In this document: positions 6,969 to 35,568 of the stretch, piece by piece | How the letters are laid out: each line of letters starts with the position of its first letter | How positions within the stretch are numbered: position 1 is the first letter of the stretch | Program-made: the position numbers and the translations under genes | The notes under the pieces: generated by a model | Databases searched by the model: none | Seen by the model: only the letters and a program-made list of their open reading frames with translations | What the model was told of the DNA's origin: nothing | From: Thermodesulfobacteriota bacterium | GTDB lineage: Bacteria; Desulfobacterota; Desulfobulbia; Desulfobulbales; SURF-16 | Length of the DNA stretch: 64,000 bases | Direction of reading: 5' to 3' | NCBI GenBank assembly: GCA_039714595.1 | Contig: JBDLJA010000009.1 | Coordinates: 189-64,188, forward strand

Positions 6969-8933
6969 TCAAGAATTATTAAGCCTTTCCATCTCCTCCT
7001 GGGCCTCTTCCCACGCCTTGTAGGCCCGCTCCAGCTGCCGTTCCATCTTGCCATACTCATTGCTCTTGGCGGTGAAGGCGTCCTGGTCCTGGTAGAGGTC
7101 AGGGTCGGCCATCGCCTGTTCCAGGGTCTCCTTTTGTCTCTCCAGGGTCTCGATCTCCTTTTCCCGCGCCTTGATCTCCCTTTTTAAGGGAGTGGTGCGG
7201 CGGCTCAGCTCCTGGCGGGTCCGGGCCTCCTGCTGCCGTTGCTGTTTTGATTTTTTCTTGGCCTCTTGGGGCGCAGGGTCCGGTTTGCTTTGCGGTCCGG
7301 GACTAGCCTTGCCCCCCTCCTTGTCCTTCTTGGCCAGGTAATAGCTGATGTTGCCATCATAGACCACCCCCCGGCCCTCCTTGATCTCCAGGGTCTTGTT
7401 GGTGAAGTTGTCGAGGAAGTAACGGTTATGGGAGACGACGATGATGGTGCCGTCAAACTGGTTTAAGGCCGCCATGAGGATCTCCTGGCTGGAGATGTCC
7501 AGGTGGTTGGTGGGCTCATCCATAATGAGGAAATTGGCCGGGGTGGCGATCATCTTGGCCAGGGCCAAGCGCGATTTCTCGCCGCCGGAGAGGACCGCCA
7601 CCTTTTTGTCCACCTCTTCACCCCGGAAGAGGAAGGCGCCCAAGAGCGAGCGCACCTGGGTCATGTCCTTGTCCACGTCGATCATGTTCATCGTCTCCAG
7701 CACCGTGTAGTTTGGCAGCAGCTCCTGGGCCTGGTGCTGACCGAAGTAGGAGGTGATGACGTTGTGGCCAAATTTTATCTCTCCTCTGTCGGGCTGGTGG
7801 AGGCCGGCCAGCATCTTGACCAGGGTGGACTTGCCGGCCCCGTTTACCCCCACCACGGCTAACTTGTCGCCCCGGTTAAGCTCCAGGTTGAGCTCCTTAT
7901 AGACGGTGAGATCGGCAAATGACTTGCTAACCCCGGCAAGCTCCACGGCCAGCCGGCCACTGGCAGGGGCAGGGGGGAAACGGAAATGGACCTGGGACTC
8001 GCTATCTTCAAGCTCAATGAGGTCCATCTTCTCCAGCTGCTTTAAGCGGGACTGGGCCTGCTTGGCCTTGGTGGATTTGGCCCGGAACCTCTCCACAAAG
8101 CGCATGGTCTGGTCGATCTTGGCCTGCTGATTGTCATAGGCCGCCTTGAGGATTGTGAGCCTCTCCTCCTTGTCATGGACGTAGTGCGAGTAATTGCCCT
8201 TATATATTGTCAGCCGCCCCAGGCTCAGCTCCCAGGTGGAACTGGTGAGGTTGTCGAGGAAGGCGCGGTCATGGGAGATGATCACTAAGGCCCCATGATA
8301 CTCCTTTAAAAACTCCTCCAGCCAGGTGAGGGTCTCCATGTCCAGGTGGTTGGTGGGTTCGTCCAGGAGCAGATAGGGCGGGGCGACGAGCAGCTGCTTG
8401 GCCAGCATCAGACGCATGAGCCAGCCGCCGGAGAACTCCTGGCAATCCTTGTCCATGTCATCGGCCGTAAAGCCCAAGCCCATGAGGACCTTCTCTATCT
8501 GGGCGTCCATGGTAAAGATCTGGCCCTGGTCCAGGGCCTGTTGCAACTCCCCCTGGCGCTCCAGGAGGCTGTTTACCTCTTCTGAGTTGGGGGCAAGCTC
8601 GCTCATCTTCTGGTAGATCTCATCCAGCTCCTGCTGTTTTGCCAGGAGATGGCGGAAGGCCTGGCGCGCCTCGTCCACCAGGCTGCGGCCCGGCTTCACC
8701 GGGGCGATCTCCTGGGGCAGGTAGCCGATGATGGTCTCCCGGTCCCCCTTGGGGATGGTGATGACGCCGGGGTCTGTTTCGCTCTCCCCGGCCAGGATTT
8801 TGAGTAAGGTGGACTTGCCGGTGCCGTTGACCCCCACCAGGCCGATGTGGTCCTGGCCGTGGATGCGGGCGGAGATCTTTTTGAAAATATGTTTTTCCCC
8901 ATATTGAAGGGAGAGGTCGTTAATGGTAATCAT
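6969..8933 (-). CDS. ABC-F family ATP-binding protein
   Basis: Two ABC cassettes (GVNGTGKS, FSGGW, LLLDEPTNHLD; GVNGAGKS, LSGGE), no transmembrane segments, C-terminal coiled coil. Confidence 0.95.
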   Translation of the reverse strand: MITINDLSLQYGEKHIFKKISARIHGQDHIGLVGVNGTGKSTLLKILAGESETDPGVITIPKGDRETIIGYLPQEIAPVKPGRSLVDEARQAFRHLLAKQQELDEIYQKMSELAPNSEEVNSLLERQGELQQALDQGQIFTMDAQIEKVLMGLGFTADDMDKDCQEFSGGWLMRLMLAKQLLVAPPYLLLDEPTNHLDMETLTWLEEFLKEYHGALVIISHDRAFLDNLTSSTWELSLGRLTIYKGNYSHYVHDKEERLTILKAAYDNQQAKIDQTMRFVERFRAKSTKAKQAQSRLKQLEKMDLIELEDSESQVHFRFPPAPASGRLAVELAGVSKSFADLTVYKELNLELNRGDKLAVVGVNGAGKSTLVKMLAGLHQPDRGEIKFGHNVITSYFGQHQAQELLPNYTVLETMNMIDVDKDMTQVRSLLGAFLFRGEEVDKKVAVLSGGEKSRLALAKMIATPANFLIMDEPTNHLDISSQEILMAALNQFDGTIIVVSHNRYFLDNFTNKTLEIKEGRGVVYDGNISYYLAKKDKEGGKASPGPQSKPDPAPQEAKKKSKQQRQQEARTRQELSRRTTPLKREIKAREKEIETLERQKETLEQAMADPDLYQDQDAFTAKSNEYGKMERQLERAYKAWEEAQEEMERLNNS

Positions 8934-27051: not shown

Positions 27052-28158
27052 ATGTTAGGTTGGTTTAAAAAACAGATGGGCTTGGCGCCGGAAACTCCGC
27101 CGGATGAGCCAGAGGAAGAGGCGGCCGGCGCCACTACCCCGGAGAGTCCCCCTGCCGCGTCAGAACAGGAGGCGGAAGCCCCTGTTTCCCCGCCGGAAGA
27201 AGAGGTTAAATCCATTCTCCACGAGGATGTGGGGGTGTTGTTTAAGCGTCTCACCAAGGGGCTGGGCAAGACCCGTTCGTCCCTGGTGGACCGGATGGAC
27301 GAGCTTTTCTTGGGCCGCAAGGAGATCGACCCGGAGCTTCTCGATGAGCTTGAGGAGATTTTAATCACCGCGGACCTGGGGGTGGAAACCTCCATGGCCC
27401 TGATGGATGAGGCCCGGCAGAAGGTGGACCGGCATGAACTTGCCGATCCCCTGGCCTTAAAAGAGGTGTTGAAGGAGCGGATCACCCAGTTTCTCATCAG
27501 CTCTGACCGCCCGGCGGAACTGGTTATGCCCGAGTCCGGTCCCTTCGTCATCATGGTTGTCGGGGTAAACGGGGTGGGCAAGACCACCACCATCGGTAAG
27601 ATTGCCGCCAAGTTCAAGGCCAGCGGCCAGTCGGTGCTGCTCATCGCCGCTGACACCTTCCGGGCCGCGGCCGTGGAGCAGCTCAAGGTGTGGGGCCAGC
27701 GGGTGGGGGCGCCGGTGGTGGCCCAGAAGACCGGGGCCGACCCATCCGCCGTGGTCTTTGATGGCCTGGCCCACGCGGGCCAGGATAAATTTGACGTGAT
27801 CATCGTCGATACGGCCGGCCGCCTCCACACCAAGGTGAACCTGATGGAGGAGCTGAAGAAGATCCGGCGCACCATGGACCGCAAGATGCCTGGCGCCCCC
27901 CACGAGGTGATGCTGGTCATCGACGCCACCACGGGCCAGAACGGCATCTCCCAGGCCCGGGAGTTTGCCAAGGCGGTGGATATCAGCGGCATTACCCTGA
28001 CCAAGCTTGACGGCACGGCCAAGGGCGGCATTGTGGTTAATATCTGCCGGGAGTTTGATATCCCCATCCGCTTCATCGGTGTTGGCGAGCAGATGGCTGA
28101 CCTGCGCGACTTTGATCCCAATGAGTTCGCCGAGGCGCTCTTTGCCGGCAAATCTTAA
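27052..28158 (+). CDS. ftsY: Signal recognition particle receptor FtsY
   Basis: Acidic N-terminus, GVNGVGKTTTIGK, DTFRAAA, DTAGRL and TKLDGTAKGG. Confidence 0.98.
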   Translation: MLGWFKKQMGLAPETPPDEPEEEAAGATTPESPPAASEQEAEAPVSPPEEEVKSILHEDVGVLFKRLTKGLGKTRSSLVDRMDELFLGRKEIDPELLDELEEILITADLGVETSMALMDEARQKVDRHELADPLALKEVLKERITQFLISSDRPAELVMPESGPFVIMVVGVNGVGKTTTIGKIAAKFKASGQSVLLIAADTFRAAAVEQLKVWGQRVGAPVVAQKTGADPSAVVFDGLAHAGQDKFDVIIVDTAGRLHTKVNLMEELKKIRRTMDRKMPGAPHEVMLVIDATTGQNGISQAREFAKAVDISGITLTKLDGTAKGGIVVNICREFDIPIRFIGVGEQMADLRDFDPNEFAEALFAGKS

Positions 28159-28170
28159 TTTTTGTTCTTT

Positions 28171-28391
28171 CTGATTACCACTGACTTTCAGCCCGCTTGG
28201 CAGGAGAGTGAAAGGGTATCAGTTTAATTGTATTTTGGGGCTTGAAAAATTAGCAAAACTGCTTTTTATCCGCAGATAAGCGCAGACTTTGAAGGCGCAG
28301 GTAAGCGATTAAAGGGAGACTCTGAAGGTAATTACTTGTTTTTATATGAAAAAAACTTTGTGTCCTTTGCGGTGAATTTAGGGCTGATTAC
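28171..28391. repeat. ~220 bp dispersed intergenic repeat, copy 1
   Basis: 56 of the first 60 nt are identical to 34891-34950, and similarity continues to the end. CTGATTAC occurs at both ends. Confidence 0.9.
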
Positions 28392-28519
28392 AGACAACGT
28401 AAGCCATTAACTTTACGCCAGAATCGATGATGCCTCACCTGGGTCTCGCAATACTGGCTGATCCCCCCGCGCCCTGCGCTTCATAGGGCCTGGGGGTAAA
28501 AAAATTTAAGTAAAAAAAG

Positions 28520-29347
28520 ATGTCACCATATCAACGTCATACATCACCCGGTTGCGGCTCCTTTCTGGTGGTGGTCGCCATGCTCCTCCTCCTGGTGGGC
28601 GGGGCGCCGCTGCTCTTTAATGTACTCGGCTTTGTCATTGTGGCCATATTTGGCTTTGTGGCCTTTGTTGTTCTCGCCTTTGTGGGGCTGAGCTACTATG
28701 TGCGCTACCGGGTGAGCCAGTATGAGGCGCAGCAGCCGGAGGAGCGCAACCTCTTTGTCTCCCTTTTAATCCATATTCTGGTCCGGGTGGCCCAGCGTGA
28801 TGGCCAGATCAGCAAGGCGGAACGGGCCACCATCGTTAATTTTTTCCGCAGCCATTTCCGCTATAGCCAGGAGCAGATCTTCTGGGTGAAGGAGTTGATC
28901 AAGGACGCGGCCCATGACGGGCGCTCCCTGGATACCCTGCTGGCCGAGTTCAAGGCCAGCTTCACCTATCAGTATCGGGTTCTCTTGCTGGAGATGGTCT
29001 TTCAGGTCCTCTACGCCGACCATCTCTTGAGTCAGGCCGAGCAGGATCTCACCGCCCATATCGCCAGCTCCCTGGAGATCAACGCCTATGATTTTGCCTC
29101 CATCCGCAACCGTTACTTCTTCCACCAGCAACAGCAGCAGGCCCAGGCTGCCACGGACACGGCCCGTTACTATGAGGTGCTGGGCTTAAGTCCTGGGGCC
29201 AGTCAGGAGGAGATCAAAAGGGCTTATCGCGCCCTGAGCAAGGAGTATCACCCGGACAAGGTGGCCCACTTAGGTGATGAGTTTAGGCAGGTGGCGGAGG
29301 AGAAGATGAAGGAGATCAACGTGGCCTACCAGAAGCTGCAGGAGTAG
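28520..29347 (+). CDS. DjlA-like co-chaperone (TM anchor, TerB-like domain, C-terminal J domain)
   Basis: N-terminal TM helices, [14 protein letters not shown]-terminal YYEVLGL..YHPDKV J domain with HPD. Confidence 0.88.
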
Positions 29348-29566
29348 CTTTTTTACTGGCAGTTAATTATTTTGTTTAAAAAACGAATATCGAATATCGA
29401 ACAAGAAATGGCGAATAGTGAAGGGCGGATGTTAGCTTGATAAAGAAACGACCTTCTCGCTAATTTCTTAATCTCACAACTTTCCCCCCAGCAAAGCTGA
29501 GGGCAGGGCCAATGAATTGGATAGTTTTTCAACGTAATTCTAATAATAAAAAGTAGGTGATATTTT

Positions 29567-30757
29567 ATGGGTATTTCAACCAAGATGACGGAGTTTGCCG
29601 CTCGGGCCTCCTGGATCAGAAAGATGTTTGAAGAAGGGGCCAAGCTTAAAGCCCAGTACGGGGCCGACAACGTCTTTGACTTCAGCCTGGGCAACCCGGA
29701 CCTGCCGCCCCCGCCCCAGTTTGCCGCCACCTTGCAGGAGCTGGTGGCAGGCGAGGGGCCTGGCTCCCACTCCTACATGCCCAACGGCGGTTATCCTGGG
29801 GTCAAAGAGGCGGTGGCCGGCCAGATCTCCAAGGAGCAGGGGGTGGAACTGAGCGGCGATGACATCCTCATGACCTGCGGCGCGGCCGGCGCCCTCAACG
29901 TCACCCTCAAGGCGATCCTCAACCCAGGCGAAGAGGTGCTTGTCCTGGCCCCCTTCTTTGTGGAGTACCACTTCTACATCGACAACCAGGGCGGCGTGGC
30001 CAAGGTGGTGAACACCACGGCTGATTTCAACCTGGACCTTGGCGCCATCGAGGCGGCGATCAGCGCCAATACCAAGGCGATTATCATCAACTCCCCCAAC
30101 AACCCCAGTGGCCAGATCTATCCGGCCGCTGACCTGGCCGCCCTGGGCGAGCTCCTGGGCCGCTGCCAGGAGAAATTTTCTTCCACCATCTTTCTCTTAA
30201 GCGATGAGCCGTACCGGAAGATCGTCTTTGATGAGTGCGAGGTGCCCTCGATCTTCAAGGCGTACGACAACTCGGTGGTGGTCTCTTCCTACTCCAAGGA
30301 TCTCTCCCTGCCCGGTGAGCGGATCGGCTATATCGCCATTAACCCCCGTATAGCCGAACGGGAACCCATGCTGGGCGCCATGACCCTGGCCAACCGCATC
30401 CTCGGCTTTGTCAACGCCCCGGCCCTGATGCAGCGGGTGGTGGCCAAGCTCCAGGGCCAGACGGTGGAGACGGATATCTACACCAAGCGGCGGGAGACCT
30501 TCTCTAAGGTCTTAAGTGACGCCGGTCTGGAGTTCAACCCGCCCAAGGGCGCCTTCTACGTCTTCCCCAAGTCGCCCATCGCCGATGATGCCAAGTTCTG
30601 CAACCATCTCCAGAATTATAAGATCCTGGCGGTGCCGGGCCGCGGCTTTGGCATGCCCGGTTACTTCCGCCTCGCCTTCTGCGTGGAGGACTCGGTGATC
30701 AGCGGCTCGGCCAAAGCATTCAAGGAGGCCATGGCCAACTTGCCGGCCGACGACTGA
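29567..30757 (+). CDS. PLP-dependent class I/II aminotransferase (aspartate aminotransferase-like)
   Basis: FSLGNP, NSPNNPSG, SDEPY and SYSKDLSLPGERIG motifs. Confidence 0.93.
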   Translation: MGISTKMTEFAARASWIRKMFEEGAKLKAQYGADNVFDFSLGNPDLPPPPQFAATLQELVAGEGPGSHSYMPNGGYPGVKEAVAGQISKEQGVELSGDDILMTCGAAGALNVTLKAILNPGEEVLVLAPFFVEYHFYIDNQGGVAKVVNTTADFNLDLGAIEAAISANTKAIIINSPNNPSGQIYPAADLAALGELLGRCQEKFSSTIFLLSDEPYRKIVFDECEVPSIFKAYDNSVVVSSYSKDLSLPGERIGYIAINPRIAEREPMLGAMTLANRILGFVNAPALMQRVVAKLQGQTVETDIYTKRRETFSKVLSDAGLEFNPPKGAFYVFPKSPIADDAKFCNHLQNYKILAVPGRGFGMPGYFRLAFCVEDSVISGSAKAFKEAMANLPADD

Positions 30758-30759
30758 TT

Positions 30760-32286
30760 TTAGTGAATCAGCTGGCTGTCGCGCTGAAAGTTGAAGTCGT
30801 CGTCATGCTCCGCGCTGTGGCACTGAAGACAGCGGCTTTCTTTTACCGTGCCAGCCATCTTCACCTTGTCCGGGGCGAGGCCATGGCTCCGGCCCGGGCC
30901 GTGGCACGCCTCGCAGCCCACCTGGCGCAGGTCGGCCGGCAGGCTTTGGGCCAGCTGGGCCGTCTCCGCCTCAAGGCCGGTGACGTGGCAGTGGACGCAC
31001 TTCATATTCTTCTCCTGCCCCTTGCGGGTCAGGCTGGCCATGGCCCGGGCATGGGCGGTCTCCTGCCAGGCCGTGAAGATTTCGCTGTGGCAGGGCTTAC
31101 AGCCCCGGCTGCCCAGGTACTTTTTTAGTCCCTGGCCCTGCTGCTGGTTCTTCTGGCCCCGGGCTGGTTTGATCTGGCCTGCCAGTCTCTTATGTCTCTC
31201 CAGCAGCTGGCGGATCTCAGGCTCGTCGCGGAGGCTGCTGCTGATGGCCATCTGCCGGGCCGTGTAGGTGGCGGGGGGATTTTTTTTCTGCTTTTTCTTG
31301 CTGCTCAAGCGGGTAATCTCCCCCTTGAGCTCCGCCACCTGGCCTTTTAGCCTTTTGTAGTGGGAATAAGTCTGGGGCGCGTCTTTGTACACCTGGGCCG
31401 GATCACCGCGCCGTTCCAGTCTCTTGATCTGCCAGTTAAGGCGGTCCATCTCCTGGCGCTTTGCCAGCAGCGACTCCCCCTTCTTCTGCCACCTGCCGCT
31501 ATCACTCCACCTTATCTTCAGCTCACCAATATACTTTCCCTCCTTGCCGCTCTGGCTAAGCAGGGAATTATTCACCAGCCGGGGCGCCATCTTGCCGCTG
31601 CCCTGGCCCGACTGGATGATGAGGTGGATCTCTTGGTGCTGACGGGCAATCTCTTGGTTTATGGTCGGCTTCAGGTTGGAGAGGAGGATCAGGATATCGC
31701 TCTTTCGCTTGAGCTTTGCCACCAGGGGCGGCAGGGACTCCTGCCACTTATTTATCTGATAGCCGGGGCGCGGCGGGGCGGAAGGACTGGTCAGAGCCAT
31801 GATAGCTACTTTAAGTCCCGCCCTGTTGATTATGGTGGAGGCCGGAAAGATGGTTTTCCCCCCACGGTCAACCAGATTGGCGCTAAGAAAGGGGAACTTT
31901 GCCGCCTTCGCCAGCTCGTTGAGAAAGGGCAGGCCGCCGGTGAGATCCCGCCGGCCAACGGCTACGGCCTCATAGCCTAAGATGTTATAGGCGGAGATTA
32001 TGGCCTGGGCCGTGATCTTCTCCTGGGCCAGGCGGGTGGGGTTGCTCACCTTCTCAGCCGTAAATAGGAGATCGCCGCCATCGATTAAGAGACGATTTTC
32101 CCCAGGATTTTCCTGAAGCAGGGTGGCTCGTTTGGGCAGACCGCCCAACTGGCTGGACTTTCAGCCGCACGGTTCGGTCTCGCCCCGCCCGTCATTGGTG
32201 TAGAGAAGGGTCAAGGGGGGGGCTGCCCCCTGGCAGAGGTTCGGCAGTGAAAGGAGGACCAGAATAAAAAGGTAAGAAAATTTCAT
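30760..32286 (-). CDS. Predicted selenoprotein: signal peptide, UshA-like domain with C-G-Sec, and tetraheme cytochrome c domain (508 aa)
   Basis: ATG at 32286 gives MKFSYLFILVLLSLPNLCQGAAPPLTLLYTNDGRGETEPCG-UGA(32161-32163)-KSSQLGGLPKR, in frame with ORF 30760..32148. Four CxxCH motifs (CKPCH, CVHCH, CEACH, CLQCH). Confidence 0.88.
32132..32163 (-). promoter_or_regulatory. Bacterial SECIS element following in-frame UGA
   Basis: UGA + 12 nt + UUGGGC-GGUCU-GCCCAA perfect 6-bp stem; the loop begins with G at +19. Confidence 0.8.
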
Positions 32287-32288
32287 AG

Positions 32289-33626
32289 TTATGTTTGTCT
32301 GTTGCGCCGCTGGGCCAGGATCTGTCGCCACTTGTGGAGGCGGTCCCTGATTACCGCCTCATGGCCACGGTTAGTGGGTTCATAGTAGATGTTGCCCCGC
32401 AGCTTCTCCGGTAGATGGTCTTGGTCGACAATGGCTGCCGGGTCGTCATGGGCGTACTTATAGCCCTTGCCATAGCCCAGGTCCTTCATAAGGGAGGTGG
32501 GGGCGTTCCGGATGGCTAAGGGGACGGGCAGGCTGCCGCTCTTTCTGATCTCGGCCATTACCCCTTTGTAGGCCTGGTAAACGGCGTTTGATTTTGGCGC
32601 GGTGGCTAGATAGGTGGCGCACTGGGCCAGGGCCAGCTCCCCTTCGGGGGAGCCGAGCATCTGGAAGCTGTCCCGGGCCGCCATGGCCAGGGTAAGGGCC
32701 CCGGCGTCGGCGTTGCCGATATCCTCGGAGGCGAAGCGGATCATCCGCCGGGCTACGTAGAGGGGGTCTTCGCCGGCGGCCAGCATCCGGCATAACCAGT
32801 AAAGGGCGCCGTCCGGGTCGGAGTCGCGCAGGCTCTTATGGAGGGCGGAGATCAGGTTGTAATGTTCCTCCCCGTCCCGGTCATAGCGCAGACTGCCGCG
32901 GTCAAAGGCATTCTCCACCATGTTAAGTTCCACCTGGCGGACGCCTGACCCATCCTCTTCGGCCAGGGAGGCGGCGATCTCCATGGAGTTAAGGAGCCGC
33001 CGGGCGTCACCGTCGGCCTGGGCCACCAGAAAGGCGATGGCCTCGTCGCTGATCTGGATATTGTCCCGCTGCAGGCCGTGAACCGGGTGGCTGATGGCCC
33101 GTCTGGCTATCTCCTCTAACTCTTCTTCCCCCAGCTCGTTTAAGGTGACCACTCGGCAGCGGGAGAGGAGGGGCGCCACCACCTGGAAGGATGGGTTCTC
33201 CGTGGTGGCGCCGATGAGGGTGATAAGACCGCTCTCCACATGGGGCAGGAAACCGTCCTGCTGGCCCTTGTTGAAGCGATGGATCTCATCGACAAAGAGG
33301 ATGGTCTTTTCCCCCTGGCGCTGGTAGCTCTCCGCCTCCTTTATAATGGCCCGGATCTCCTTGACGCCGGTGAGAACGGCGGAGAAAAAGATGAAGTTGG
33401 CCCCCGACTTGCTGGCCAGCAGCCGGGCCAGGGTGGTCTTGCCGGTGCCGGGCGGTCCCCAGAGGATAAGGGAGGGCAGCTTTTTGGCCGAAAGGAGGCG
33501 CTGGAGAAAGGAGCCGGGGCCGACAATCTTGGCCTGCCCCACAAAGTCACTGAGGCTTTGGGGCCGCAGCCGCTCGGCCAAGGGGCGGGCGTCACCGAAC
33601 AGGGAGGGCTGGGATTGGCTGGACAT
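32289..33626 (-). CDS. rarA: Replication-associated recombination protein A (AAA+ ATPase)
   Basis: PLAERLRP, WGPPGTGKTT, FVDEIHRFNK, ATTENPSF, ISALHKSLRDSD, ASEDIGNAD and APKSNA. Confidence 0.96.
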   Translation of the reverse strand: MSSQSQPSLFGDARPLAERLRPQSLSDFVGQAKIVGPGSFLQRLLSAKKLPSLILWGPPGTGKTTLARLLASKSGANFIFFSAVLTGVKEIRAIIKEAESYQRQGEKTILFVDEIHRFNKGQQDGFLPHVESGLITLIGATTENPSFQVVAPLLSRCRVVTLNELGEEELEEIARRAISHPVHGLQRDNIQISDEAIAFLVAQADGDARRLLNSMEIAASLAEEDGSGVRQVELNMVENAFDRGSLRYDRDGEEHYNLISALHKSLRDSDPDGALYWLCRMLAAGEDPLYVARRMIRFASEDIGNADAGALTLAMAARDSFQMLGSPEGELALAQCATYLATAPKSNAVYQAYKGVMAEIRKSGSLPVPLAIRNAPTSLMKDLGYGKGYKYAHDDPAAIVDQDHLPEKLRGNIYYEPTNRGHEAVIRDRLHKWRQILAQRRNRQT

Positions 33627-33633
33627 GGGCTGG

Positions 33634-34434
33634 TCACTCTCCCTGGTCGGTTATGATCTCGGCCATCCGTTCAGCGGTGAAGACCAGGGATTCGATATCC
33701 AGGTAGGTGAGGACATTGGCGGCAAAGAGAACCTTGACCTTGGCCGGGAAACCGTCCTCCGGCTCTTCGTCCCAGAAGATGATCTGTTGGGGGATGCGGG
33801 GCAGGACCGGGACAACGCAGGCCGCGGTGGCGCTGCTGCCGGTGAGCTCGCGGCCACCGACCTTGGCGCATAGGGCGAGAACCTGGGCCCGGCCCTTGGC
33901 GCTGAAGGCCTGGGCCAGCTTATCTTCACAGTAGGTGGCCAGGGTGCGCACCTTGGAGATGGAGTTGGGCAGGCTCTCCAGGCCGGTCCAGGTGGGATCA
34001 GGGGCGGGGCCGCCGCCAAAGTGGAGATAGTTGTAGAGAAGTATCTGGTCCCGCGGGTCGTCGGGCTCCGCCCCGTTGATCAATACCCCGCTGCCGCTGA
34101 TTCTGGTCTGCTGGCCCAGGTAGGTGAACTCCAGGCTGTCACCTATGAAGTTTGCCGCCAGAGGGGCGGCCAGGCTGGCCAGGTCAAGGCCTGCGACCTT
34201 GCCCTTCAGGTGGGCGATAAGGGCCATGTCCCGTTTTTTGGCCTCCTCCTCCAGGGGGGTGGCGCCGCCCTGGTCCAGGTTGAGGCTGCTACTGTCAAGA
34301 TAGGGGCATTTATGCGGGTCTTCGCCGCCCTTGGCAACATTGGCGGCAAAGGCCAGGCAGGCGGGATAACCGCACTCACCGCAGTTTGTCCGCGGGGTGA
34401 GTTTCAAGATCTGGTGGGGGGTGGGCTGTTCCAT
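33634..34434 (-). CDS. Putative Fe-S cluster domain plus DUF3786-like protein
   Basis: N-terminal PRTNCGECGYPACLAFA..CPY Fe-S motif; C-terminal VPVLPRIP..FWDEE..FPAKVKVLF. Confidence 0.8.
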   Translation of the reverse strand: MEQPTPHQILKLTPRTNCGECGYPACLAFAANVAKGGEDPHKCPYLDSSSLNLDQGGATPLEEEAKKRDMALIAHLKGKVAGLDLASLAAPLAANFIGDSLEFTYLGQQTRISGSGVLINGAEPDDPRDQILLYNYLHFGGGPAPDPTWTGLESLPNSISKVRTLATYCEDKLAQAFSAKGRAQVLALCAKVGGRELTGSSATAACVVPVLPRIPQQIIFWDEEPEDGFPAKVKVLFAANVLTYLDIESLVFTAERMAEIITDQGE

Positions 34435-34700
34435 CAGATAACCATGCGGATGGCGGGTTGCTGGCAGAGGGCGGCAAAGATATTGTTGCGCATCTCTTCT
34501 GACTCCACCACCAGCTCCAGGTTAAGGGAGATGTATTTGCCCTTGGAGCTTTTCTTTGACGGCCGGAGGATATGGGCCTGGGGGGCCACGACCCCGGCCA
34601 CGGCCAGCTCAAGGGCTCTCTTGTCGCTGCCAATAACCACAAACTGCCAGGGACAGGGATAGTTGATCTCAGGTCTTTTATCTTGCAGGCAGTTGGCCAT
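34434..34700 (-). CDS. DUF493 / YbeD family protein
   Basis: INYPCPWQFVVIG..SKKSSKGKYISLNL; 1-nt overlap with the next gene. Confidence 0.85.
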   Translation of the reverse strand: MANCLQDKRPEINYPCPWQFVVIGSDKRALELAVAGVVAPQAHILRPSKKSSKGKYISLNLELVVESEEMRNNIFAALCQQPAIRMVI

Positions 34701-34890
34701 GGCGAACGGTGTTGGCTGAATTTGTTTGAGGTAAGTGAAGGGGAGGATCTGTAAAAATAATCCACCACGAGCAAATTGACAATCGCCATGATTATATTTT
34801 TATCAATTCTAAGATGTTAAGGTGGCAGGGTCTCAGGAGATGGTCATCTGTCACCTCTAACTTGGCCATGGCCTGGTTGCAAACGGAAAT

Positions 34891-35130
34891 CTGATTACCA
34901 CTGACTTTTAGCCGGCTTGGCAGGAGACTGAAAGGTTATCAGTTTAATTGCAATAATTTTGGGGCTTGAAAAATCAGCAATACTTCTTTTTCAGCGCAGA
35001 CATCGAAGACGCAGGTAAGAGACCAAAGGGAGATTCCGAAGATAACTACTTGTCTTTATAAGAAAAAAACTTTGCGTCCTTTGCGCCTTCGAAGTCTGCG
35101 CTTATCTGCGGTGAATTTATACGGGCTGAT
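34891..35130. repeat. ~240 bp dispersed intergenic repeat, copy 2
   Basis: Same orientation as 28171. Carries TGCGCCTTCGAAGTCTGCGCTTATCTGCGG near its 3' end, a near reverse complement of the internal motif of copy 1. Confidence 0.9.
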
Positions 35131-35229
35131 ACTTAGTGATAATCAGAAACTGAAATGACATCTGGCCTAGATAGGGGCAGACTTCGAGGGGAACAGCTGG
35201 CCTGAGCTTCGCTGCAAAAGCGGGGTTGC

Positions 35230-35568
35230 TCAGGGGGCAGGGGGTGGGGTAAAGGAGATTAGCTCAATCAGGCTATGGTGGAGTTGTTCAAGGCGGTCAG
35301 TAATGGCGGCGTCATCACCTGTCTTGCAGGCGGTTCGCAGTGATTCTGTCAGATGGGCCGTTTTTTCGGCGGTGATGGTGCCGGCGGCGCCGCTGATCTT
35401 ATGGCAGATCTGCCGGATCTTTTCCCGGTCATAGGGCTGGGCGCTGGCCTCCTCAAGCTCTTCCTGCCATTCGGGGATGCGTTTGTTCAGGGCGGCAAGT
35501 AAGGAGTCCACCTTTGCCCGGTCGCCAGCGAACATGGTTACTAATTTATTATAGTCGATGATATGCAT
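35230..35568 (-). CDS. Hpt (histidine phosphotransfer) domain protein
   Basis: All-helical; ICHKISGAAGTI matches the Hpt HxLKGxxG motif. Confidence 0.8.
   Translation of the reverse strand: MHIIDYNKLVTMFAGDRAKVDSLLAALNKRIPEWQEELEEASAQPYDREKIRQICHKISGAAGTITAEKTAHLTESLRTACKTGDDAAITDRLEQLHHSLIELISFTPPPAP

Follow-up and report, generated by a model that had tools for sequence, protein, structure and literature searches.

The window analysed here, a stretch of 64,000 nucleotides from contig JBDLJA010000009.1 of a Thermodesulfobacteriota bacterium, carries on its minus strand a complete coding sequence for a UshA-like (seleno)protein (30760..32286; 508 codons, then a TAA stop at 30762-30760), in which a single in-frame UGA is read as selenocysteine (Sec). 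We are highly confident that the locus is one gene, rather than a short open reading frame (ORF) followed by a second ORF started at a TTG, and there is very little doubt that its product is an exported selenoprotein of 508 residues belonging to the catalogued family NF041198. Taken as a whole, this identity together with the mechanism proposed below makes up an explanation that we consider likely to hold. Because the family has been curated, surveyed and found in 35 of 41 related genomes, the result is a gene-model correction and no new kind of protein: nothing sets the window protein apart within its selenoprotein family, which has been catalogued since 2008 and is already known.

The start codon, an ATG at 32286, lies two bases (ct) after the TAA stop of rarA (32291-32289) in the minus-strand sequence, and translation of 32286-30760 with TGA as U yields 508 residues with one TGA, at codon 42 (32161..32163, minus), which both the translation and the homologue alignment place in P39-C40-G41-U42. 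The full translation opens with MKFSYLFILVLLSLPNLCQG, followed by AAPP, and continues LTLLY-TNDGRG-ETEPCGUK-SSQLGGL-PKRAT. The mechanical ORF list splits the gene into a 56-codon ORF (32331-32161), which opens at an in-frame upstream GTG and ends at the TGA, and a 462-codon ORF (30760..32148, minus), whose start, the TTG at 32148 picked by the ORF caller, is the first codon of the hairpin stem described below. The public gene call for the source genome (P0002, 462 amino acids, from the TTG) is this truncated product, from which the Sec codon and the 41 conserved residues ahead of it, signal peptide included, are missing. By eye, residues 1-20 (MKFSYLFILVLLSLPNLCQG, before AA; 32227..32286, minus) appear to form a Sec-type signal peptide that belongs to the read-through product only, with K2, a hydrophobic core and a probable cleavage site at CQG/AA; the homologues have equivalent hydrophobic N-termini, and in the AlphaFold2 model residues 1-20 have a predicted local distance difference test score (pLDDT) of 51-54. 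The read-through product is needed because c-type heme attachment requires export and the signal peptide sits only in the ATG-started product.

The source genome (2.76 Mb in 76 contigs, 97.6% complete) was searched for the machinery of Sec decoding and was found to contain selA (618 bits), selB (371 bits) and selD (365 bits) together with one tRNA-SeC, anticodon tca, at C1:111493-111567. The selD gene (G000:C15:46100-47020, locus L010) is also a selenoprotein gene, with an in-frame TGA in KAAG-U-AAKISPGD, and its UGA is followed by its own hairpin, CCAGG-GGA-CCUGG, with a GGA loop. Database homologues of the window protein fall into two length classes, one of about 516 amino acids that covers the whole query and one of about 463 amino acids that starts just past the UGA position. 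Where the window has PCG-UGA, 28 of the 29 full-length database proteins have PCGC, and the remaining one (P0051) has Ser. In homologous loci taken as DNA from species-representative genomes and metagenome contigs, codon 42 is TGA in 19 loci (16 distinct sequences) and TGC or TGT in 30. UGA-42 almost certainly encodes Sec.

Minimum free energy and centroid folds both give a bacterial selenocysteine insertion sequence (SECIS) hairpin, UUGGGC-GGUCU-GCCCAA (32132..32148, minus), which starts 13 nt past the UGA, beyond a 12-nt spacer, and consists of a 6-bp stem (UUGGGC at 32148-32143 and GCCCAA at 32137-32132) closed by a GGUCU loop (32142-32138), the stem doubling as codons for the invariant residues L47-G48-G49-L50. 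The 76-nt stretch alone has an unremarkable folding z-score (-0.88), so support for the hairpin was taken from comparison. In an alignment (A3) of 16 distinct Sec-form homologues, 97.9% of the cells pair, two stem pairs show compensatory change (U-A to C-G and U-A to G-C), none of 500 shuffles matches the observed pairing or covariation score, and sliding the partner drops pairing to 27-63%. All Sec forms share the UGA, a 12-nt distance, a 6-bp stem and the invariant GGUCU loop. The amino-acid conservation of LGGL is a confounder for the conservation of the hairpin; in 29 of the 30 Cys forms the same residues are written with other codons (GGC/GGA/GGG; CTC/ATC/TTG), and the hairpin sequence is gone. 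The exception, L092, has GGC GGU CUG codons in CUGGGCGGUCUGGCCAA, and a G-G mismatch breaks the stem. At this locus (8136-8180), which is that of P0004, the closest Cys-form relative (41% identical), CUGGGCGGUCUGGCCAA is retained after a TGC codon; the sequence suggests that the broken hairpin is a SECIS remnant, which would fit a recent Sec-to-Cys replacement. An Rfam scan of 28000-35300 returned no SECIS family match at E<=1 (two sub-threshold chance matches only), and a genome-wide regular-expression search for TGA plus stem plus GGTC gave three spurious ORF contexts, did not recover its own locus and was uninformative.

These results agree with what the initial annotation had read from the letters. 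Its TTG start at 32148, its ATG 2 nt past the rarA stop and its UGA at 32161-32163 are borne out by the sequence, the perfect UUGGGC/GCCCAA hairpin with a G-first loop recurs in both folds and in the 16 Sec forms, and the signal peptide that it expected from read-through can be seen on the N-terminus. Among the checks it had named were selA, selB, selC and selD in the genome and Cys at the UGA position in homologues: all four genes are there, with the scores and the tRNA-Sec(tca) given above, and Cys occupies the position in 28 of 29 full-length database proteins and in 30 of 30 Cys-form loci, in an alignment that spans the UGA. Every one of its checks and refuting conditions that was run spoke for its reading.

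The assignment to the family comes from the NCBIfam model NF041198 (UshA_like_PCGU, "UshA-like (seleno)protein"), which scores 541.1 bits against a cut-off of 275 and aligns residues 8-501 of the protein with positions 7-519 of its 519, the cytochrome tail being included in the model; a six-frame search of the genome with the same model gave 532.9 bits at G000:C9, with "1 TGA". The window protein is 35-49% identical to database members. NF049981 (UshA-like selenoprotein family 2), a CxxU family, scored 54 bits, under its cut-off of 140, the motif in the window being CxU, and the source genome contains no second paralogue or NF049981 member, the sole match being the same locus, below the cut-off. 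The selenoprotein table of the 2008 Global Ocean Sampling survey has an entry "COG0737, UshA-like, CxU" with 76 Sec and 92 Cys sequences (PMC2398784), and the CxU UshA-like family is included in a 2022 review, with WP_013162925.1 of Desulfobulbus propionicus as the example (PMC9312934), and, under NF041198, in a 2026 review (PMC13188914), all three being surveys of Zhang and Gladyshev.

Six-frame searches with NF041198 covered 41 genomes (the source genome and others of its genus, family and order); 35 of them have a match over the cut-off, in almost every case with a single in-frame TGA. The best matches of the gene come from Candidatus Desulfobia, Desulfurivibrionaceae and Desulfobulbaceae metagenome-assembled genomes (MAGs), and by them the order is Desulfobulbales or a near relative. 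Judged from these searches, the UshA-like gene is a near-core selenoprotein gene of its order. Other phyla have more remote members that share 23-28% identity, as Sec forms in Myxococcota, Oligoflexia and gammaproteobacterial MAGs and as Cys forms in Myxococcales, Verrucomicrobiota, Planctomycetota (including Scalindua), Acidobacteriota and Fimbriimonadales.

The N-terminal domain (residues 25-262; 31501..32214, minus) has the 5'-nucleotidase/UshA metallophosphatase fold without the canonical metal ligands. A family profile run against PDB sequences matches residues 23-285 to the N-domain of 5'-nucleotidases (2z1a at 9e-19, UshA at 7e-17), and an AlphaFold2 model built on 120 homologues (pLDDT 89.2, predicted template modelling score 0.86; the model contains no hemes) retrieves CD73, UshA and 2z1a with Foldseek at E of about 1e-17 over about 280 columns at 22-25% identity. 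The motifs TND, QLGGL..RAT and DGGD are present, and VGRRD stands where 5'-nucleotidases have GNHE. Conservation was counted in 45 aligned members from several phyla (the window protein and 44 homologues; 14 Sec and 31 Cys forms). The metal motif DxH reads D32-G-R in the window, and its His position is never His in the family; GD reads G-G-D69, with Asp in 14/14 Sec forms and 19/31 Cys forms; GNH(E/D) reads G-R-R-D114, with variable residues at the Asn and His positions and D or E at position 114 in 45/45; the H motif reads S-N-L and the GH motif Q-S-G, both unconserved. At the His and Asn ligand positions of 5'-nucleotidases the family has R, D, S, Q or G, unconserved in Sec and Cys forms, and D32 and D69 vary among the Cys forms. 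H221, near the ligand positions, is His in 7/14 Sec forms, and no His is conserved at the ligand positions themselves; D69, D114, N137 and D197 are invariant in 14/14 Sec forms. By this ligand pattern, the canonical dimetal site of the phosphoesterase fold is lost. The P-C-G-U/C motif comes soon after the first beta-strand. The residues of the N-domain that are invariant in 45/45 are C40, G41, C/U42, G48 and G49, and G35, P39, G71 and D197 are nearly so (41-44 of 45).

The substrate-binding C-terminal domain of 5'-nucleotidases has no Pfam match in the protein, and residues 273-508 consist of a helical linker and the cytochrome. The linker (residues 273-385; 31132..31470, minus) is modelled mostly with pLDDT >85 and comprises helices 273-291 and 304-333, a strand 339-347 and a helix 356-370. 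Pfam, a PDB profile and conservation all mark residues 386-508 (30763..31131, minus) as a tetraheme c-type cytochrome domain, with CKPCH at 396-400 (nt 31101-31087), CVHCH at 430-434 (nt 30999-30985), CEACH at 458-462 (nt 30915-30901) and CLQCH at 486-490 (nt 30831-30817), all on the minus strand. The only Pfam matches of the protein fall in this tail (Cytochrome_C554, 3.6e-15 and 57 bits; Cytochrome_C7, 6.9e-8), which also matches 6i5b and cytochrome c554 (1bvb) in the PDB profile search with E-values of 3.6e-28 and 3.4e-14. All four CxxCH motifs occur in 44/45 members, L032 having three as its translation ends early; outside these motifs, H412 and H468 are invariant in 45/45 and the C-terminal H508 is widely kept. 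The initial annotation had already listed TND, GGL..RAT, DGGD, GRRD for GNHE and the four CxxCH, all of which were found, and was correct that UshA-like selenoproteins had been reported, as the surveys of 2008, 2022 and 2026 attest. Its fusion of a UshA-like domain to a tetraheme cytochrome is present as an architecture but is no new feature, being the normal form of NF041198. The mechanism it proposed, in which Sec redox chemistry would be coupled to electron transfer by the hemes, is reasonable.

The part of the explanation that is in very little doubt runs from decoding to export. Ribosomes start at the ATG at 32286, probably by coupling to rarA, whose end is so close; SelB carrying Sec-tRNA(Sec) binds the GGUCU-loop hairpin 12 nt downstream, and UGA-42 is read as selenocysteine; the signal peptide carries the protein over the inner membrane, where the four hemes are attached to the four CxxCH motifs. 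The proposed mechanism is less certain. The N-domain would be a 5'-nucleotidase fold minus its dimetal site, no longer hydrolysing phosphoesters. Its only universally invariant motif, C40-G41-U42, would alternate between two states, a selenolate/thiolate pair and a selenenylsulfide, and the tetraheme tail would pass electrons between the C-G-U site and the periplasmic cytochrome pool. The substrate would be small and periplasmic, with inorganic sulfur or selenium species and disulfides as the most plausible candidates. We regard C-G-U as the catalytic centre, wired for electrons by the hemes, because C-G-U/C is invariant, the CxxCH motifs are kept, and the metal ligands and the substrate domain are gone; the protein may, with slightly less than an even chance, be a heme-linked Cys/Sec oxidoreductase of this kind. 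Support for the mechanism also comes from Cys forms of Planctomycetota and Verrucomicrobiota, where in eight loci a thioredoxin-fold protein is encoded about 28 nt downstream, a neighbour that is weakly consistent with thiol redox chemistry.

Several points weigh against the oxidoreductase reading. The family's entries in the selenoproteome surveys (PMC2398784, PMC9312934, PMC13188914) report no experiment on any member and no function, which leaves both the substrate and the direction of electron flow to guesswork. Gene context was tried as a clue to function and set aside: the neighbours are housekeeping genes, which we read as inherited synteny, and give no functional clue. The C-G-U loop is a low-confidence part of the AlphaFold2 model (residues 31-50 at pLDDT 54-60, and 43-45 below 50). 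Only three widely conserved distal His (H412, H468 and H508) are available for four hemes. Finally, an acidic cluster persists in the N-domain (D/E at 114 in 45/45, D197 in 41/45, D69 in 14/14 Sec forms), and its conservation could mean that a metal or cation site still matters.

The shortage of distal His bears on the most probable of the alternatives, itself unlikely, in which the Cys/Sec pair acts at a heme. C40 or U42 would be the sixth ligand of, or would lie just above, the heme without a conserved distal His. The result would be a catalytic heme of the His/Cys(Sec) type, as in SoxAX or TsdA, which act on thiosulfate and similar sulfur compounds. To the four CxxCH motifs with only three widely conserved extra His is added the replacement of H494 by E, Q, N, F or R in distant members, and the Sec loop is modelled as flexible; the model contains no hemes, however, and a His, Met or Lys outside the aligned columns may supply the missing ligand. 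The homology of the tail to cytochrome c554, which has one five-coordinate heme, can be read in two ways, as a vacant site for C40 or U42 or as a heme that is five-coordinate as in c554, with the N-domain uninvolved. A weak match of the N-domain to SoxB (E 2.9e-14 in NCBIfam, 4.5e-7 for PDB 4uwq) points towards sulfur chemistry, but the score, 52.3 bits with TIGR04486, is far under the cut-off of 550. That a Cys/Sec pair on a metal-free phosphoesterase scaffold at a heme without distal His would constitute a new His/Sec-type catalytic heme for periplasmic sulfur or selenium chemistry seems to us distinctly unlikely.

The acidic cluster would take on a different meaning if the N-domain were still a hydrolase, with D69, D114, D197 and N137 binding one metal and Sec42 as the nucleophile that cleaves an S-S, Se-S or ester bond. 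The reaction would then resemble that of SoxB, and the hemes would be used in a redox step of their own. The fold is indeed that of dimetal hydrolases, SoxB included, and the invariance of these four residues in all Sec forms, with D or E at 114 throughout the family, speaks for a retained site, but we consider a hydrolase improbable: no metal-ligand His position is conserved, D32 and D69 vary in the Cys forms, and a covalent tetraheme module kept across phyla argues that electron transfer is central. It can hardly be right that the UGA is a true stop, with the locus either divided into a leader ORF of 41 codons and an independent protein started at the TTG or reduced to a pseudogene: gene callers do give the same split in the window and in many public records (P0002 of 462 amino acids; the 43-aa and 463-aa ORFs in L093), but the TTG-started product has four CxxCH motifs and no signal peptide, sequence conservation spans the UGA, the SECIS shows both conservation and covariation, the genome has the full set of Sec genes, and about 35 related genomes retain this one TGA, which would not be seen with a pseudogene.

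A run of four tightly spaced genes on the minus strand ends with the UshA-like gene. Immediately upstream of it lies rarA/mgsA (32289..33626; Pfam MgsA_C, 1.1e-66), preceded by FeS/DUF3786 (33634-34434) and DUF493 (34434-34700), and the only promoter-like site on the minus strand ahead of the run, TTAACA-18-TATAAT (34791..34820; 11/12, a consensus match only), is upstream of DUF493. This arrangement suggests an operon DUF493 - FeS/DUF3786 - rarA - UshA-like. The rarA and UshA-like genes are probably co-transcribed and, because the gap between them is 2 nt, translationally coupled. The gene order recurs: rarA precedes the UshA-like gene in eight Desulfobulbia loci, and the four-gene order of the window (30760-34700, minus) is found again in L093 (5445-9392) and L096 (6482-9446). 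In the metagenome locus L093, the gene call for the selenoprotein's N-terminal part, an ORF of 43 aa, overlaps the rarA stop by 4 nt. It is odd to find a replication-associated ATPase of the cytoplasm next to a heme selenoprotein of the periplasm. The Cys-form relative P0004 has other neighbours, a methyl-accepting chemotaxis protein and a sigma-54 activator.

Other lineages have their own neighbourhoods. In eleven loci with distant Cys forms from Planctomycetota and Verrucomicrobiota (L025, L028, L033, L034, L036, L037, L041, L047, L053, L055 and L057), a conserved same-strand run encodes a weakly VWA-like protein of about 690 amino acids, a protein of about 960 amino acids without a Pfam match, DUF4159 and the UshA-like tetraheme protein, and in eight loci it ends with a protein of about 1150 amino acids that combines a thioredoxin fold with HEAT repeats. 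In the Sec-form loci L019, L020, L022 and L023 (Myxococcota and gammaproteobacterial MAGs), the gene lies about 6 nt downstream of one for a DUF4340 protein, and in three of the four an ABC-transporter ATPase is encoded a few kb upstream. The window itself contains a direct repeat of about 200 nt (28170-28371 and 34890-35085), made of three collinear segments of 86-93% identity that lie 6714-6724 nt apart, which brackets TerB/DnaJ - aminotransferase - UshA-like - rarA - FeS/DUF3786 - DUF493; the segment 28270-28299 (30 nt) of one arm is 97% complementary to 35082-35111, and the repeat has no Rfam match at E<=1.

For the source genome, the outcome is a corrected gene model, and nothing at the locus goes beyond what the NF041198 family already shows. 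The locus adds a further example of a widespread, conserved periplasmic selenoprotein that keeps a costly Sec codon and combines a Cys/Sec motif with four hemes. Knowledge of its substrate would supply a missing piece of how sulfur-cycling Thermodesulfobacteriota run their periplasmic redox biology. Should the Cys/Sec pair prove to act at a heme without a distal His, the near-universal presence of the gene in the order would make the protein a core redox enzyme of Desulfobulbales that has so far gone unrecognised.

Compared with known systems, the window protein is closest to its own family, NF041198, with which it shares the position of P-C-G-U, the signal peptide, the degenerate phosphoesterase domain, the helical linker and the four-CxxCH tail; the family has both Sec and Cys forms, and the window copy differs from it in nothing essential. 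Its SECIS resembles that of E. coli fdhF in lying at a short fixed distance past the UGA and in its G-rich apical loop with GGUC, and differs in its short stem of 6 bp that doubles as LGGL codons. The tail shares the tetraheme packing motif of cytochrome c554 of Nitrosomonas (1bvb) and of the multiheme OcwA-type protein 6i5b, but in the window the cytochrome is the C-terminal module of a larger enzyme-like protein. SoxB thiosulfohydrolase (4uwq, 2wdc) has the same superfamily fold and a periplasmic location, a likeness that hints at sulfur chemistry, but it works with a dimanganese site and lacks both Sec and hemes. E. coli UshA and other 5'-nucleotidases (1ush, 2z1a; human CD73) share the N-domain fold and are likewise periplasmic or extracytoplasmic; in the window protein, by contrast, the ligand motifs DxH, GNH(E/D), H and GH have given way to DGR, GRRD, SNL and QSG, a C-G-U is added past motif I, and the nucleotide-binding C-domain is replaced by a linker and a tetraheme cytochrome.

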